Source: Verrucomicrobiota bacterium
Lineage (GTDB): Bacteria > Verrucomicrobiota > Verrucomicrobiia > Opitutales > Opitutaceae
Direction of reading: 5' to 3'
DNA: 64,000 bases
Assembly (NCBI GenBank): GCA_025361935.1
Contig: JANYJB010000006.1
Coordinates: 3,344 to 67,343, forward strand
Position 1 is the stretch's first letter. Each line of letters opens with the position of its first letter. The notes beneath the pieces are model-generated. The model made no database searches and was not told the origin of the DNA. It saw only the letters and a program-made list of their open reading frames with translations. A program made the position numbers and the translations under genes. Shown piece by piece: positions 22,035 to 30,292 of the stretch.

Positions 22035-23312
22035 ATGCCGGCCCATCCCACATTTCGCGAGGCGCTGAGGTTTTGGCTGAAGCTGGGATTTATCAGCTTC
22101 GGCGGACCCGCCGGGCAAATCGCGATCATGCAGCACGAGCTGGTGGAGCGCAAAAAATGGATCGGGCAGGAGCGGTTTCTGCATGCGCTCAATTTCTGCA
22201 TGCTGCTGCCCGGGCCGGAGGCGCAACAACTGGCGGTTTACTGCGGCTGGCTGCTGCATCGCACGCGGGGCGGGATCGTGGCGGGCGTGTTGTTCGTGCT
22301 GCCGTCGGCGGTGATTTTGTGGGTGTTGAGCTATGTCTATGTCGCCTATGGCGAGGTGCCGTGGATTGCGGCGATTTTCTACGGGCTGAAGCCGGCGGTG
22401 ATGGCGATCGTGTTCGCGGCGGTGCTGCGGATCGGAAGCAAGGCGCTTAAAAACGGTGTCATGTGGGGGATCGCGACGGCGGCGTTCGGGTTGATCTTTT
22501 TTGCGAAAATGCCGTTTCCGGCGATTGTGTTTGGCGCGGCGCTGATCGGCTTCGCGGGCGGGCGGCTGGGGTGGAGCGCGTTGACCCCAACGCGCTCGGA
22601 TGAGGGGACTCAAACGAACGCGTTGGGGTCAACGCGTTCCACCTGGGTTTACTCGGCGCGGGTGGTGGCGGTGTGCGGTGGGCTGTGGGCGGCGCCGCTG
22701 GTCGCGGTGGGACTGTGGCAGGGGTGGTCGGGCACGCTGGCGCAGGAAGGGTTGTTTTTCAGCAAGGCGGCGATGGTGACGTTTGGCGGGGCCTACGCGG
22801 TGCTGCCGTATGTCGCGCAGCAGGCGGTGGAGACTCATTCGTGGCTGGCTGCGCCGCAGATGCTCGATGGGCTGGCGTTCGCCGAGACGACGCCGGGGCC
22901 GCTCATCATGGTGCTCCAGTTTGTGGGGTTCATGGGCGGGTGGAACCATCCGGGGGCGTTGTCTCCCCTGGTGGCGGCGACGCTCGGCGCGGCGATCACG
23001 ACGTGGGTGACGTTTGTGCCGTGCTTCCTGTGGATTTTTTTAGGTGCGCCGCACATCGAGCAGTTGCGCGGCCAGAAGGTTGTCACGGCGGCGCTCGGCG
23101 CGGTGACGGCGAGCGTGGTGGGCGTGATCCTGAATCTCGCGGTGTGGTTTGGCTGGCACGTGCTCGTGCCCACGGGAACGTGGGCGAGCGTGGACTGGTT
23201 TGCGGCGGCGGTGGGCGCGGGGGCGTTTGTGGCGCTGCACCGGTTCAAGGTGAACTTGATCGCGGTGATCGCGGCGAGCGGGGCGTTGGGGTTGGCGTGG
23301 AGCTGGGTGTGA
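22035..23312 (+). CDS. chrA: Long-chain chromate efflux transporter (CHR family)
   Basis: KLGFISFGGPAGQI, LLPGPEAQQ, TFGGAYAVL, ETTPGPLI; start moved to ATG 22035. Confidence 0.92.
   Translation: MPAHPTFREALRFWLKLGFISFGGPAGQIAIMQHELVERKKWIGQERFLHALNFCMLLPGPEAQQLAVYCGWLLHRTRGGIVAGVLFVLPSAVILWVLSYVYVAYGEVPWIAAIFYGLKPAVMAIVFAAVLRIGSKALKNGVMWGIATAAFGLIFFAKMPFPAIVFGAALIGFAGGRLGWSALTPTRSDEGTQTNALGSTRSTWVYSARVVAVCGGLWAAPLVAVGLWQGWSGTLAQEGLFFSKAAMVTFGGAYAVLPYVAQQAVETHSWLAAPQMLDGLAFAETTPGPLIMVLQFVGFMGGWNHPGALSPLVAATLGAAITTWVTFVPCFLWIFLGAPHIEQLRGQKVVTAALGAVTASVVGVILNLAVWFGWHVLVPTGTWASVDWFAAAVGAGAFVALHRFKVNLIAVIAASGALGLAWSWV
22570..22643. repeat. Palindromic repeat family A, copy 1 (in frame inside chrA)
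   Basis: GGTGGAGCGCGTTGACCCCAACGCGCT...AACGCGTTGGGGTCAACGCGTTCCACC; near-identical arms occur at 49929-50007 and 54026-54129. Confidence 0.9.
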
Positions 23313-25389: not shown

Positions 25390-25464
25390 GCGGAGGAGTG
25401 AACGGGAAAAGAGGGAAAGGACAATCCCCGCGTTGGCGGGAAAGGGTCCAAATCTCAGAATTTT

Positions 25465-25548
25465 TTAACCACGAATGGAATCGCCCAACCGGGCGATTCG
25501 GTGGAAGCGGTTCCGGCCAATGGCCTCCACGATTAAACGGAGGGGCGG
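25465..25548. repeat. ~84-bp structured direct repeat, copy 1
   Basis: TTAACCACGAATGGAATCGCCCAACCGGGCGATTC...CAATG...CGGAGGGGCGG; aligns end to end with 25744-25826. Confidence 0.75.
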
Positions 25549-25588
25549 CTGATGCCACCATGGAAACGGCAGTCAGGAGATGCAGACT

Positions 25589-25732
25589 TCACACCTTCCA
25601 GCTTTTGAGTATCTTGATGTCGTTGGCGCGTTCGTGGGCGGGTAGATCGCGATGAGCTCGTTAAGCCCGGTAGGCGACGGAAGCGACGGCCTCGTTGGCG
25701 TCGAGAGTGGCGAAATGCGGGGCGGCGGAAGG
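25589..25732 (-). pseudogene. Deletion scar: 5' stub of pyruvate:ferredoxin oxidoreductase (nifJ-type) joined to the 3' stub of a dihydroorotate-dehydrogenase-like gene
   Basis: Minus strand reads FATLDANEAVASVAYR, one extra base, LNELIAIYP (PFOR N-terminal consensus DGNEAVAxVAY..EVIAIYPITP), then PAHERANDIKILKSWKV* (cf. ERANY.K.L.S tail of DHOD-like proteins). No start codon. Confidence 0.7.
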
Positions 25733-25743
25733 CCGGAGTTTTA

Positions 25744-25826
25744 TTAACCACTAATGAAATCCGCCAATCGGCGGATTTTTTGGGAGTGGCCTCTCGCAAT
25801 GCTCCGGCTGTGAAGCGGAGGGGCGG
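25744..25826. repeat. ~84-bp structured direct repeat, copy 2
   Basis: TTAACCACTAATGAAATCCGCCAATCGGCGGATTT...CAATG...CGGAGGGGCGG. Confidence 0.75.
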
Positions 25827-25933
25827 AATTATGACGGCTGGAGGAAGTCGGGCCAGGTGGTGAAGCCGTCTTTGGCGTAAATGGCGGACGGGTTGGGGGA
25901 CCTTTTAGGTTCGACCTAACTTTGACTGAAAAC

Positions 25934-26194
25934 TCAGTGTTTTCTTGGGGTAAGTTCGTGCCAATCCATTTGTTTTGGCAGTAGATCGACCGGTGGCACG
26001 CGAAGGATTTTGGCGAGCATCACCAGCTCAAAATCACCAACCCAACGAACCCTTCCTTCAATGGCGGCGATGATGCTGCGCGAAATATCCCAGCCCGCGA
26101 CCTGGCACTTGGCGGCCAACGCTCCCTGCGACCAACCGAGTTGATCCCGGTATCGGCGCACTTGCGGTCCGACGATGTTTTTAGGCCGTGGCAT
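25934..26194 (-). CDS. XRE-family HTH transcriptional regulator
   Basis: NIVGPQVRRYR...WSQGALAAK...ISRSIIAAIEG..R...LAKILRV...LLP, 86 aa. Confidence 0.88.
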   Translation of the reverse strand: MPRPKNIVGPQVRRYRDQLGWSQGALAAKCQVAGWDISRSIIAAIEGRVRWVGDFELVMLAKILRVPPVDLLPKQMDWHELTPRKH

Positions 26195-26259
26195 TGTCTG
26201 GTTTTCGAGACTTGACTGTAACAGTCGGCGGCAGACCTAATGTCTTGAAAACCAGACAT
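26195..26259. promoter_or_regulatory. Two inverted copies of a GTCT-N8-AGAC operator-like palindrome in the divergent promoter
   Basis: TGTCTGGTTTTCGAGAC (26195-26211) and GTCTTGAAAACCAGACA (26242-26258) are 16/17 reverse complements; TTGACT and a GACTGT-A-ACAGTC palindrome lie between them. Confidence 0.7.
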
Positions 26260-26307
26260 TATGCCGAGTGCGGCAGAAGTTGAATGTAAAGCCTCCGCCC
26301 ATCACCC

Positions 26308-27120
26308 ATGATCGACCCGTTAGCGGACAATTTATCAACGCCGGACGTTCTTCACGGCAGGCGCGAGATTGACGCTCTTTATACGCCACTCGACGAGGCG
26401 GTCGTAGAATTGCACAAACGGCGACAGGATACCCGGCTCTTGCAGCGAGTCGCAGATTTTCACCAAGAGCTGCCGCCGACTTTTATGCCAGACGATCCCG
26501 TGGGCGTTTTGTTCCGGCATATTCAGACGCCCAACCACGAGTTTGAGGTATTTGATGCGAGCATTCAGCAAGCCGCACTCCAGCCGCTTTGTTTGGAATA
26601 CGCGCAGGATAACTTCTACTCGTGGAATCAAGATAAGCACCGCCTTTGCCAGCCCGTATTTTGTCTGACACCCAATCACCTCAATCATCTGCGCTTGGTA
26701 AATTTCAACGGCATAGAAAAATGTCCGTTGAGCGGCATCAAAACCAAGAACGGCTTACTGCTGACGGACTATCATCACGCCCTGCTTGAGCATACGAAGC
26801 CGGGCAACGCGTGCTCCATCATCGACATTTCACCGTGGTTTTTCGACGCGAGCCGGGGGGATTATTATTACCTCCGGTTCTTGGCCCTTTTTATCTGTCA
26901 CGGTATCCTCTTTGAAAACTTCGTTGCCGCCGATGAGTCGGAACTCCGTTTCACCCGCGAAAAAGTCATTCCAAGTTTCGGCAAGGCGAGGGAGCTCTTT
27001 GGCGTCCGCCCGTTGATTGTGCCCATCATGTCGGTAGCGACGGAAGACAGTGACCGCTGGCGCTGCCATCCCGGCGCACTCTGGAACTTCGCCCAAGAAC
27101 TCCTGCATCCAAAACCATAA
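26308..27120 (+). CDS. Hypothetical soluble protein, 270 aa
   Basis: Clean ORF with globular composition; its stop abuts the next start (TAAATG). No family recognised with confidence. Confidence 0.8.
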   Translation: MIDPLADNLSTPDVLHGRREIDALYTPLDEAVVELHKRRQDTRLLQRVADFHQELPPTFMPDDPVGVLFRHIQTPNHEFEVFDASIQQAALQPLCLEYAQDNFYSWNQDKHRLCQPVFCLTPNHLNHLRLVNFNGIEKCPLSGIKTKNGLLLTDYHHALLEHTKPGNACSIIDISPWFFDASRGDYYYLRFLALFICHGILFENFVAADESELRFTREKVIPSFGKARELFGVRPLIVPIMSVATEDSDRWRCHPGALWNFAQELLHPKP

Positions 27121-27675
27121 ATGAGCAGTGGCAAAAACAGGTTCATCATAAAAAACACCCGAAAATATGGTAAGGGTGTCTTTGCCTCTAAAAATATCGG
27201 CAAAGGAGATGTGATACACATCCTTTCAGGGGAAAGACTGGATATCAAAGATGTCGTGAAGCGAGTTCTTGCGGGAGGTGAATTGATAGACGATCCGCTC
27301 CAGATAGGGAGACGCACGTATCTCGATCTCGATCAGCTCTCCCGGATGTTTAACCATAGCTGTGATCCCAATGCTGGGGTCAAAGGCGTAAGCGATCTTT
27401 TTGCCCTGAGAGACATCGGACTGGGAGAGGAAATCACCTATGATTACTCTCTTACGATCGCACCCACGGAGTGGGCGATGAGGTGCCAGTGTGGATCATC
27501 AAAATGCCGCCAAGTAATCGGAGACATTTTGAGTGTGCCCAGCAAACGACGTAAAGAATATAGGAAAATGGGCGCACTCCAGATATACCAGCGGCGGCTT
27601 CTGAAGGAAATCGACGAAGAGCGTTATCAAATTCCGAGGTATGAAATCGCTGCGCTGGAAAGGTTGAAATCGTGA
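27121..27675 (+). CDS. SET-domain protein-lysine N-methyltransferase with post-SET cysteines
   Basis: GKGVFA, FNHSCDPN, GEEITYDY, CQCGSSKCR. Confidence 0.93.
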   Translation: MSSGKNRFIIKNTRKYGKGVFASKNIGKGDVIHILSGERLDIKDVVKRVLAGGELIDDPLQIGRRTYLDLDQLSRMFNHSCDPNAGVKGVSDLFALRDIGLGEEITYDYSLTIAPTEWAMRCQCGSSKCRQVIGDILSVPSKRRKEYRKMGALQIYQRRLLKEIDEERYQIPRYEIAALERLKS

Positions 27676-28169
27676 ATCAGGAACATCGCGTCGCCCGGAG
27701 CACAGCGGAGATCGCCACGGGATTCCTCACCTGGCACGCCTTGGAGTATGCCTTCGACTGCGCCCTGTATCCGTTCGCGATTTGGAAGCTGGGGCTGTGG
27801 CGCGGTGGCGCGCTCATGGCCGTGCTCTCGTTGCTTTCATGTCTGCTTCTGTTGTGGCTCTACGACAAGCTGAAGCGTGACTGGTTCGGGATCGAGTTGG
27901 CGAAGGAACTGCGGCTCTACTCCGGGCCATCACGTTGGAAGCGTGCCATGGCAAGGCTACTTGGTCGCGGCGATGCGGTGGCGTTCATCGTGCTCTCGCT
28001 GCGCTTCGATCCGTTCATCACGACCGCCTACATCCGGCATGGGGCCTATAACGGGCTCGCACGGCGGGATTGGAAAATCTTTCTCGGCAGCGTCGCCCTC
28101 AGCAACGCCGCGTGGGCGCTGGTATGTTTTGGCGGGGTCGAAGCGGTGCGTCGGCTGGGTAGATTTTAG
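27672..28169 (+). CDS. Hypothetical multi-pass membrane protein
   Basis: GTGA overlap with the SET gene; 3-4 hydrophobic segments. Confidence 0.75.
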   Translation: MNQEHRVARSTAEIATGFLTWHALEYAFDCALYPFAIWKLGLWRGGALMAVLSLLSCLLLLWLYDKLKRDWFGIELAKELRLYSGPSRWKRAMARLLGRGDAVAFIVLSLRFDPFITTAYIRHGAYNGLARRDWKIFLGSVALSNAAWALVCFGGVEAVRRLGRF

Positions 28170-28182
28170 GGGGAGAGCGAGC

Positions 28183-28418
28183 ATCGCCTGCAAGCAGACC
28201 CGTGCGGTTGAGCCGTGCGCAGCGCCGGGCGTGTGACGCGTAGGGAAATCGTTCTCGTTCTCATACTCGTTCTTCGTTCTCGATCCGAAACGGATGAGGA
28301 GAGAACGAGTAGGAGAACGAAGAACGAGAACGATCAGGAGCGGCTGGAGAGGGGAAATATCGCCTTCAAGCAGACTCCTACATGGCAGAGGCGGAATCGC
28401 GCATAAATGCGCTCCTAC
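28183..28418. repeat. Repeat hotspot: three GTAG-type REP half-copies and a family B inverted repeat
   Basis: ATCGCCTGCAAGCAGAC (28183), family B ATCGTTCTCGTTCT...AGAACGAGAACGAT (28248-28334), ATCGCCTTCAAGCAGACTCCTAC (28359), ATCGCGCATAAATGCGCTCCTAC (28396). Confidence 0.75.
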
Positions 28419-29748: not shown

Positions 29749-29858
29749 ATCGTTCTCGTTCTCTTAATCGTTCTTCGTTCTCGATCAGGCGGGGCGGAAA
29801 AAAGGGAGAACGAGAAAGAGAACGAAGAACGAGAAAGAGAACGAAGAACGAGAACGAT
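29749..29858. repeat. Family B inverted repeat between sufU and sufS
   Basis: ATCGTTCTCGTTCTCTTAATCGTTCTTCGTTCTC ... iterated GAGAACGAGAAAGAGAACGAAGAAC ... GAGAACGAT. Confidence 0.85.
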
Positions 29859-30292
29859 TAGGAGGCGGAGGGCGGCTGCTTTAGGGCTTCGAGGGCGGCG
29901 TGCCAGCCGAGGGTGGCGCATTTGATGCGGGCGGGGAAGGCGTGGACGCCGGCGAAGGCCGCGAGCTCGCTGAGCTCCTCGGGCGCCTTGCCGGTGGTGA
30001 CGATTTCCTTGAACTCGTTGAAGAGCGTCTCGGCCTCGGGGGCGGTCTTGCCCTTGACCTGCGTGGTCATGAGGGAGGTCGCGGCCTGGGAGATGGCGCA
30101 GCCGGAGCCCTCGAAGCCGATGGCGTCCACGCGGCCGGCACCGTCGAGGTGGAGGAAAACCGTGCAGTTGTCACCGCAACTGGGGTTGTCGCCGGTGGCC
30201 ACGCGGTTGGCGGTCGGCGGCTTGCCGCGGTTGCGGGGGCGCTTGTTGTGGTCGAGGATGACCGACTGGTAGAGATCGGTGAGGTCGGACAT
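29858..30292 (-). CDS. sufU: SufU (IscU/NifU-like) Fe-S assembly protein
   Basis: LYQSVILDHNKRPRN, NPSCGD, GCAISQA, PARIKCATL. Confidence 0.93.
   Translation of the reverse strand: MSDLTDLYQSVILDHNKRPRNRGKPPTANRVATGDNPSCGDNCTVFLHLDGAGRVDAIGFEGSGCAISQAATSLMTTQVKGKTAPEAETLFNEFKEIVTTGKAPEELSELAAFAGVHAFPARIKCATLGWHAALEALKQPPSAS

Follow-up and report, generated by a model that had tools for sequence, protein, structure and literature searches.

In the window, a stretch of 64,000 nucleotides from a Verrucomicrobiota contig, three coupled genes and a divergent XRE gene (Table 1) raise the question of what a SET methyltransferase, a small membrane protein and a protein of no named family (ORF1) do together. 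An earlier note had described this layout and proposed an undescribed, self-contained, methylation-based module acting in defence, signalling or the modification of peptides or small molecules. Re-calling of the open reading frames returned the same arrangement at the same coordinates, and the junctions TAAATG between ORF1 and SET and GTGA between SET and the membrane protein were both found in the sequence.

Table 1. Features of the islet, with positions counted from the first nucleotide of the window.
Feature	Position	Strand	Description
Imported islet, approximate extent	25730..28200	.	between PFOR operon remnant and sufS 3' end
XRE-family HTH regulator	25934-26194	-	86 aa; Pfam HTH_3 E 2e-6; divergent from operon
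17-bp inverted repeat, candidate operator	26195-26211 and 26242-26258	.	XRE-ORF1 gap
ORF1, core enzyme, unnamed family	26308-27120	+	270 aa; predicted synthase/ligase
SET-domain SAM methyltransferase	27121-27675	+	184 aa; PF00856 E 8.4e-13
Membrane protein, weakly DedA/VTT-like	27672-28169	+	165 aa; GTG start

The genes lie in an islet that is AT-richer, as previously claimed, with a GC content of 0.48-0.62 inside and 0.65-0.68 in the flanking genes, and a GC3 of 0.52-0.77 and 0.88-0.92, respectively. The repeat clusters once taken as its bounds had 57 (right flank) and 27 (left flank) blastn matches across the assembly, and because these elements are dispersed genome-wide they mark no islet boundary. 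The insertion site was vacant in two genomes (G003 and G007) and held other cargo in four (G009, G011, G012 and G019), while ORF1 was found in none of 60 relatives and in none of 300 genomes of the phylum. The genes of the islet are an imported, receptor-less version of a cassette known mostly from ultra-small Patescibacteria. An upstream SbmA/YddA-like ABC gene was considered as a further member and was placed outside the module because its GC3 is native and relatives without ORF1 also have it.

ORF1 had no Pfam, NCBIfam or PADLOC match, and a homologue search bore out the suggestion of the earlier note that similar proteins occur in Patescibacteria. The family comprised 1,017 clusters at 50% identity; it had no relative among the PDB sequences, its Atlas leads were all below 0.9, and five pattern matches in viral contigs yielded no confirmed member. 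A total of 117 ORF1 loci, 80 from genomes and 37 from metagenomes, were surveyed within a radius of 3 kb. In neighbour profiles that were built from these same loci, which include related genomes and are not independent, the 80 genome loci featured a 7TM histidine kinase in 63 cases and a Cys-rich membrane-anchored protein in 58, with SET (16), the SAM decarboxylase SpeD (7) and GNAT (6) as accessory neighbours. Within about 1.5 kb the counts were 63 for the kinase, 58 for the Cys-rich protein, 39 for the membrane protein, 26 for EamA and 15 for SET (n=80), and ORF1, the Cys-rich protein, the membrane protein, EamA and SET were found at 0/22 non-cognate 7TM-kinase loci and 0/25 bshC loci at the same distance. 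SET and the membrane protein both occurred within 3 kb of ORF1 at 15/117 loci, five of which repeated the gene order of the window.

Fusions of ORF1 among 259 proteins were to SET in seven, to GNAT in three and to a second membrane family in two. Since its genes co-occur elsewhere and ORF1 belongs to no known family, the module can still be called undescribed, and the cassette was nowhere described in a literature search run without most subscription journals. The module is not methylation-based as had been supposed, because SET is an optional part, lying within 3 kb of ORF1 at the sixteen loci above and absent from the other 64; its centre is ORF1 and not SET. Nor is it self-contained, as most genomes add the 7TM sensor kinase and the Cys-rich protein that are both missing here. 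The pairing of ORF1 with the kinase is not obligate. The kinase was missing at 17/80 genome loci, where a membrane protein or a tailoring enzyme was usually kept, and in one genome (G702) an M28 peptidase accompanied ORF1 while a cognate kinase was lacking. In an even sample of 400 Patescibacteria, 4/7 cognate kinases had no intact ORF1 adjacent, three of them accompanied by SET and another membrane protein and one by EamA only.

The membrane protein is predicted to fill the exporter slot of the cassette. Within 3 kb of the 80 genome loci this slot was taken by the window's family only in 40 cases, by EamA only in 28, by both in none and by neither in twelve. The similarity of the protein to VTT_dom (E 2.6e-4, 21.9 bits) was below the PF09335 cut-off of 33.9 and was shared by 2/50 members; its Atlas lead was Sm_multidrug_ex (0.77), and Foldseek returned nothing from the PDB at E<=0.001. 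Lipid flippases exist among DedA proteins, and this weak match would fit a role in envelope modification, in which ORF1 would load a lipid or lipid carrier with an amino acid, the DedA-like protein would flip the product in the manner of the MprF halves and the kinase would monitor the envelope. At two loci (L102 and L105) an MFS gene and a fusion of the cassette's GNAT to a PlsC-type acyltransferase, both upstream, point the same way. We regard this role as distinctly unlikely, as EamA proteins, which are carriers of soluble metabolites, stand in place of the DedA-like protein at 28/80 loci and no clear membrane anchor is present in ORF1, whose hydropathy peaks at 1.61 in a single window.

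The 7TM kinase retained the invariant His and the ATPase boxes, and 6/56 members matched HisKA_7TM (best E 2.9e-9). Across 70 loci, ORF1 distances correlated more closely with the sensor domain of this kinase, at r 0.60 (partial 0.57; 0/999 permutations), than with its kinase domain, at r 0.30 (partial 0.22); adjacency alone could cause the sensor correlation. All six of the more distant HisKA_7TM kinases that were examined in full lay directly behind biosynthetic-type genes, namely ThiF and nitroreductase in three cases, acyltransferase and dehydrogenase in two and UbiA in one. The interval between dnaJ and trpS-aspS held a kinase cassette of this kind at L200 and the ORF1 cassette at L037 and L072. 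The neighbouring tRNA synthetases, considered as dedicated substrate suppliers, were rejected in that role since an unrelated cassette occupies the same site. A fused ThiF-nitroreductase enzyme is reported to make oxazolones, which are suggested to be signals (bioRxiv 10.1101/2020.06.11.147165).

Based on gene linkage, fusions, exchange in the membrane slot and the joint inheritance of ORF1 and the sensor domain, we read the operon, with a probability of roughly 0.55, as encoding the enzymes that make and tailor a diffusible signal and the protein that exports it, the window's genome having the production half and its receptor being undetected. Among the roles that the earlier note had left open, small-molecule signalling is favoured and defence is little supported. 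The kinase could also sense an outside compound, which would be altered and pumped out by ORF1, SET or GNAT and the transporter. Resistance systems often include GNATs, methyltransferases and EamA/MFS exporters, a receptor-less XRE-controlled form in non-Patescibacteria hosts, at some loci in mobile elements with coupling protein, primase or IS66 genes (L082, L084 and L098), would be useful alone, and ORF1 would be expected to co-vary with the sensor because both recognise one compound. Such detoxification is nevertheless unlikely, as SpeD, spermidine synthase and a saccharopine-dehydrogenase-family gene occur in ORF1 operons, where they would supply precursors, and the sister kinases lie behind plainly biosynthetic genes. 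SpeD was located between XRE and ORF1 at L015, and at L195 the order was Cys-rich protein, SpeD, EamA, ORF1, kinase and response regulator.

That ORF1 is closely linked to the kinase and inherited with it would also suit an ORF1 that synthesises nothing and serves as its cytoplasmic partner, a ligand-binding or nucleotide-turning regulator of the USP or nucleotidyltransferase type; HUP folds include nucleotidyltransferases, which were among the structures in the fold lists. That ORF1 occurs without the kinase at 17/80 genome loci and is fused to enzymes and membrane proteins makes this highly improbable; no fusion to the kinase was seen among the 259 proteins examined, which came from searches limited by length or to the best 150.

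The AlphaFold2 model of ORF1 (pLDDT 94.4) was closest to BshC, the cysteine-adding enzyme of bacillithiol synthesis, in the VIA fold search (Z 7.6, rmsd 5.1, 218 residues aligned), and class I LysRS also matched (Z 7.0, rmsd 4.7, 180 aligned). HUP enzymes dominated the top 50, none with Z >= 8, and values of 7-8 are typical where there is no clear match; the fold is predicted to be HUP/class I aaRS-like, on a best Z that is not decisive. Against the PDB and BFVD, Foldseek found no match to the model at E<=0.001 (best E 0.093). The ORF1 profile had no significant hhalign match to BshC (26 sequences), CysRS (12), TrpRS (10) or TyrRS (6). While BshC and class I LysRS are the best structural matches, ORF1 is half as long with 6-8% identity, does not match PF10079, had a profile probability of 0.3% with BshC, which is not significant, and has no bacillithiol genes among its recurring neighbours.

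Conserved residues of ORF1 were R70, T/S74, P75, E78, D101, N107, K110, H156, Y188, E203 and W251. T/S74, kept in 253/259 sequences, lies in the loop that joins strand 1 to helix 1, and positions 71-82 had no conserved His or Gly of a HIGH motif in the same 259 sequences. Cyclodipeptide synthases (CDPSs; AlbC, PF16715) likewise consist of a single separate domain of about this size that has lost HIGH, with the HUP/class I aaRS-like fold predicted for ORF1, and their catalytic Ser sits in the strand 1-helix 1 loop (PMC2922099, PMC3105412). The conserved hydroxyl residue in this loop and the variable tailoring genes are further likenesses. ORF1 differs from the CDPSs in that it did not match PF16715 (the control was matched in B. 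subtilis), in that its loop reads R-x-I-x-[TS]-P-[ND]-x-E where the CDPS signature is G-x-S-x-x-N, and in its partners, a receptor kinase, SET and exporters. Other HUP enzymes outscored the CDPS structure 5mlq (Z 4.6 against the model).

Given the signal reading, CDPS-type chemistry is preferred by analogy at somewhat less than even odds; an activated amino acid would pass from aminoacyl-tRNA to Thr/Ser74 and then to an amine. The amino acid would be taken already activated because ORF1 lacks HIGH, and since SAM decarboxylase and further polyamine genes come into the cassette, the amine may derive from a polyamine or from SAM. An ATP-dependent ligation of the MshC/BshC type would be the alternative.

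The SET protein scored 49.1 bits against PF00856 (cut-off 22.4) and has the catalytic and post-SET motifs reported earlier (N78-H79-S-C-D-P-N, E-I-T-Y-D-Y109 and C122-x-C124-x4-C129), which were conserved across 26 ORF1-linked SETs. In line with the earlier statement that it has no signal peptide, no hydrophobic stretch was present (maximum 19-residue hydropathy 0.51), and the C-terminal extension noted as extra is common to its subfamily. At least eleven gains or losses of SET were forced on a quick ORF1 tree. SET is likely an optional tailoring enzyme with a small-molecule substrate. PDB matches were mostly histone methyltransferases, together with BurB (E 5e-8), a SET methionine S-methyltransferase that is likewise bacterial, of similar size and directed to a small molecule. 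The substrate of this bacterial SET enzyme is a free amino acid (PMC12542666). It aligned over residues 59-140 (73-155 of BurB), leaving the N-terminal 58 residues of SET unaligned; histone methyltransferases outscored it, and DMSP-pathway genes are absent among the recurring neighbours. Orthology was rejected on the partial alignment and the higher rank of the histone enzymes, and BurB is a precedent for the window SET, not its orthologue.

The higher scores of the histone enzymes count against the small-molecule reading. An alternative is protein methylation, whether anti-phage or otherwise, in which SET would methylate ORF1 or a host or phage protein and the membrane protein would be the effector. 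SET and GNAT as lysine writers, a patchy distribution like that of defence genes, and type III restriction-like and DUF1016 genes at the insertion site in G012 and G011 would fit. The same site holds a metabolic cluster in G019, however, SET is missing at 64/80 loci and the partner that predominates is a sensor kinase. ORF1, SET and the membrane protein matched no PADLOC (2.0) system model, and over 111 ORF1 members PADLOC gave a single weak match each in three only. We consider this role very unlikely.

The XRE protein is likely the local regulator, and XRE control of the operon is plausible. The arms of the inverted repeat are 30 nt apart and 94% complementary, 0/60 mononucleotide shuffles matched it and it occurs once in the genome; unlike inverted repeats lay upstream of ORF1 at L082, L083 and L084. 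A divergent XRE within 3 kb of ORF1 was present at 4/80 genome and 1/37 metagenome loci, and by tblastn these had no match to the window XRE except a 46% homologue in L086. A dedicated, conserved XRE partner was rejected as the XREs beside other ORF1 copies are mostly unrelated to that of the window. No cognate kinase was found in the window's genome (assembly 88% complete), and no cognate receptor in it or in five non-Patescibacteria hosts, with one weak match (3.8e-4).

Under the signal reading, ORF1 likely builds a small amide-linked molecule, SET likely methylates either this molecule or the amino acid that goes into it, and export is the predicted task of the membrane protein. In the full Patescibacteria cassette the 7TM histidine kinase would sense the signal, with SET and GNAT as alternative decorations changing its identity, and in the window host the islet would be an orphan producer under XRE control. 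The arrangement resembles lqsA/lqsS, cqsA/cqsS and agr, which are synthase-receptor quorum-sensing cassettes with membrane kinases, in that an enzyme, a transporter-like gene and a multi-pass sensor kinase are adjacent, enzyme and sensor domain are inherited as a block and cassettes are swapped at one chromosomal site. The predicted synthase gene lay beside a membrane sensor kinase at 63/80 family loci, which is not so in the window's genome. The ORF1 cassette differs in its unrelated enzyme fold, its HisKA_7TM-type sensor, the added Cys-rich membrane protein and SET/GNAT/SpeD accessories, and in that the signal is proposed from the genes. A survey of CPR quorum sensing had only known synthase families as queries (PMC7567580).

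In Patescibacteria, whose genomes are tiny, few routes of sensing or signalling are known. The cassette provides a concrete, clonable signalling candidate, in which an enzyme family new to description, with about 1,000 clusters, comes with a predicted exporter and receptor. A wider rule is hinted at, in which Patescibacteria HisKA_7TM kinases pair with biosynthetic genes; no ligand for this sensor family was found described in the literature. For SET proteins of free-living bacteria, small-molecule tailoring would be a testable role, and ORF1 is possibly a further case of a tRNA-synthetase fold recruited for metabolite synthesis. More speculatively, and doubtful as a whole, ORF1 could be an autoinducer synthase of a new class that arose from a fold like that of class I tRNA synthetases, and Patescibacteria could use a native quorum or host-contact language written in swappable synthase-exporter-7TM-kinase cassettes, with SET methylation and GNAT acylation setting the dialect and the disulfide-rich membrane protein acting as co-receptor. 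Bacteria with a free-living habit that have captured the production half and not the receptor, potential hosts included, could then mimic or jam the signal.

The ORF1 cassette is real, and its parts are both linked to one another and exchanged. Within 3 kb of ORF1 in 80 genome loci, the best 80 of 113 confirmed, were a seven-transmembrane (7TM) histidine kinase (63 loci), a single-pass Cys-rich protein (58), the membrane protein family of the window (40, six being a divergent subfamily), EamA (28), SET (16), the SAM decarboxylase SpeD (7), a specific GNAT (6) and a divergent XRE (4); the neighbour profiles were derived from the ORF1 loci themselves, and related loci are not independent. With 37 of 39 metagenome loci added (two had no anchor ORF and were left out), SET and the membrane protein occurred together at 15 of 117 loci, and the gene order of the window was repeated in five (L001, L022, L085, L087 and L098). 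Within about 1.5 kb, cassette partners were found at none of 25 bshC loci and, save one SpeD, at none of 22 loci of 7TM kinases outside the cognate subfamily found with ORF1. In L060, L112-L116, L119 and L192 the ORF1 context diverges: an M28 peptidase comes after ORF1, and both kinase and transporter are missing.

The membrane protein and EamA were mutually exclusive (40 and 28 of the 80 genome loci, none with both and 12 with neither), while in L102 and L105 an MFS transporter took their place upstream of ORF1. A fourth membrane family was fused to ORF1 in two proteins, and among 259 ORF1 proteins seven were fused to SET and three to GNAT. Because unrelated membrane proteins fill one and the same position, we infer that it is an export slot. 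Detoxification is an unlikely alternative reading of such a module.

We favour, with a probability of roughly 0.55, a joint reading in which ORF1 would couple an amine with an activated amino acid, and the product or its precursor would then be modified by SET or GNAT. Export would fall to the membrane protein, and detection to the 7TM kinase and its Cys-rich partner. The window would hold the production half, probably under XRE control.

Locations of features in the window and at other loci
Feature	Location	Strand	Description
XRE	window 25934-26194	-	
ORF1	window 26308-27120	+	270 aa
SET	window 27121-27675	+	
Membrane protein	window 27672-28169	+	
Palindromic repeats	window 25455-25560, 28248-28340, 29749-29864		two dispersed families; dozens of genome copies, also copies in other genus members
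Gene fusion	window 25585-25729 (ORF 25533-25799)	-	end of dihydroorotate-dehydrogenase-like gene fused straight to start of PFOR gene
Hairpin	window 22570-22643		35 bp, 89% complementary; in frame in chromate transporter gene, between two domains; relatives' matches break here
Second SET gene	G000:C62:60220-60600		window's own genome; unrelated, 32% identity
MFS-acyltransferase-GNAT fusion	L105:2233-4794		upstream of ORF1 and kinase
MFS and acyltransferase-GNAT	L102:911-3419		same set, split; upstream of ORF1 and kinase
Fourth membrane family	L197:4480-5649, L198:6423-7591, L168		unnamed, ~205 aa, no Pfam match; also proteins P0202, P0253; accompanies SET and cognate kinase at loci with no ORF1 or only a fragment
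Cys-rich protein away from ORF1	L191:5681-6616, L195:4840-5325		after glycosyltransferase region; 311-aa form in genome G779

A first search returned 115 ORF1 homologues and a profile search 1,017 clusters at 50% identity, with no match in Pfam, NCBIfam or PADLOC or to a PDB sequence. The family is sporadic, being found in six of 400 evenly drawn Patescibacteria genomes (four strong, one divergent and one fragment). The AlphaFold2 model was confident (pLDDT 94.4, pTM 0.91), and a wide fold search placed BshC first (Z 7.6, rmsd 5.1, 218 aligned) and class I LysRS second (Z 7.0, rmsd 4.7, 180 aligned), followed by GluRS, TyrRS, PPAT, NadD and ATP sulfurylase; a cyclodipeptide synthase (CDPS) came in at Z 4.6. 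No match reached 8 and, by the tool's own remark, Z of 7-8 is common even without a true match, so the predicted HUP fold rests on the consistency of this list and on no one hit; Foldseek and profile comparisons gave nothing significant. Across 259 sequences, the loop that follows strand 1 lacked a HIGH motif and conserved R/K70 (245), T/S74 (253), P75 (239), N/D76 (238) and E/D78 (249); D101 (242), N107 (255), K110 (258), H156 (255), Y188 (256), E/D203 (258) and W251 (247) were also kept. According to excerpts of two papers (PMC2922099, PMC3105412), CDPSs too have lost HIGH and carry in the same loop a catalytic Ser, which takes the aminoacyl group from aminoacyl-tRNA to give an aminoacyl-enzyme. 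ORF1 resembles them in its missing HIGH and its T/S74 in the corresponding loop, but fails both the GxSxxN signature and the CDPS Pfam model, which rules out membership; by analogy it may nevertheless work like a CDPS.

A quick tree with 110 rows required 20 changes in SET presence, at least 11 of them forced by supported branches; this is close to the shuffled mean of 22.8, and SET has thus been gained or lost again and again. In the supported clade of the window (nine rows, several on short contigs) the kinase adjoined ORF1 in no member. Among solved structures the window SET matched mostly histone methyltransferases but also BurB, which S-methylates free methionine (PMC12542666); BurB is no orthologue, but it is a precedent for a small-molecule substrate. 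A role in defence or protein methylation is improbable. L195 and L053 had SpeD within the cassette, L015 had it between XRE and ORF1, and L008 had it upstream together with spermidine synthase; the window's genome had no SpeD-profile match. Arginase-family genes adjoined EamA in L067, L068, L074 and L078 (two Pfam-confirmed), and L036 carried a saccharopine-dehydrogenase-family gene. These accessory genes point to a building block that is an amine or derives from SAM.

The four ORFs, gene junctions and SET motifs of the window all agreed with the earlier note. Its repeat clusters do not bound the islet, since the flanking repeats are scattered genome-wide. The islet is compositionally foreign (GC3 0.64 for ORF1, 0.52 for SET and 0.77 for the membrane protein, against 0.88 and 0.92 for the flanking ABC-transporter and sufS genes), and a 17-bp inverted repeat, reached by none of 60 shuffles, fills the XRE-ORF1 gap. 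ORF1 was found in none of 60 relatives or 300 genomes of the phylum. The nearest homologue that carries a name comes from a Verrucomicrobia bin, which points to a verrucomicrobial host. Among six genus members, the ABC gene-sufS interval was free of cargo beyond a PFOR operon in G003 and G007. In the others it carried different cargo: type III restriction-like genes together with DUF1016 genes in G012, DUF1016 in G011, a metabolic cluster in G019 and unassigned genes in G009. About 4.5 kb appear deleted at the gene fusion, because G003 and G007 keep both genes whole. Close ORF1 relatives in L082, L084 and L098 are surrounded by genes of conjugative elements, among them coupling protein, primase, relaxase-like and IS66 genes, which offers a possible route for transfer.

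The cassette kinase retained the invariant His and intact ATPase boxes, with C6, W66 and C137 invariant in its N-terminal region. HisKA_7TM, given only as a sensor domain in an excerpt (PMC5847659), matched six of 56 members. Over 70 loci, ORF1 distances correlated more strongly with those of the sensor domain (r 0.60, partial 0.57, 0 of 999 permutations) than of the kinase domain (r 0.30, partial 0.22), which argues that ORF1 and sensor travel as one unit, through either a shared ligand or mere adjacency. That ORF1 is a non-synthetic partner of the kinase is the least probable reading. The sensor profile matched 61 of 400 sampled Patescibacteria genomes, seven of them qualifying as cognate at E<=1e-34. 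ORF1 adjoined three of the seven kinases; another three came with SET and the fourth membrane family but had no intact ORF1 (one with an ORF1 fragment, one on a 1.9-kb contig), and one came with EamA only. The receptor can therefore be retained where ORF1 is lacking, and SET by itself may have a bearing on the ligand. A co-fold of sensor region and Cys-rich protein, with chains from different loci (L011 and L037), scored 0.37 against 0.00 for the best control, runs sharing at least 52% of contacts with partner pLDDT of at least 69; 116 of 157 solved pairs and 2 of 215 mismatched ones attained this mark, but only 18 of the solved pairs and both mismatched ones did so at or below 0.60, and a predicted contact thus has weak support. 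Neither the sensor nor the Cys-rich profile matched the window's genome (88% complete), nor was a cognate sensor found in five non-Patescibacteria hosts. The Cys-rich protein is also present at a distance from ORF1, so that its role at the cell surface may be broader. Envelope or lipid modification as the function of the cassette is unlikely, and ranks below detoxification.

The lqs, cqs and agr systems are synthase-receptor signalling cassettes. The ORF1 cassette shares their layout, while its enzyme family, receptor subfamily and Cys-rich partner are unnamed. A full-text literature search returned no description of it, and an excerpt of a published CPR survey gives known synthase and receptor families as the BLAST queries (PMC7567580). 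Among 54 more distant sensor matches, six top-scoring or near-top loci (L200-L205) were studied in full, and biosynthetic-type genes preceded the kinase in all six: ThiF and nitroreductase in L201, L202 and L205 (two with a Leu/Phe/Val dehydrogenase), an acyltransferase (PlsC) and a shikimate-dehydrogenase-like gene in L200 and L203, and UbiA in L204. Sets of ThiF, nitroreductase and amino-acid dehydrogenase also came with an unassigned protein of ~500 aa. The L200 cassette lies between dnaJ and trpS-aspS, a site occupied in both L037 and L072 by the ORF1 cassette. These distinct biosynthetic sets suggest that the HisKA_7TM kinases of Patescibacteria represent a whole repertoire of synthase-receptor cassettes.
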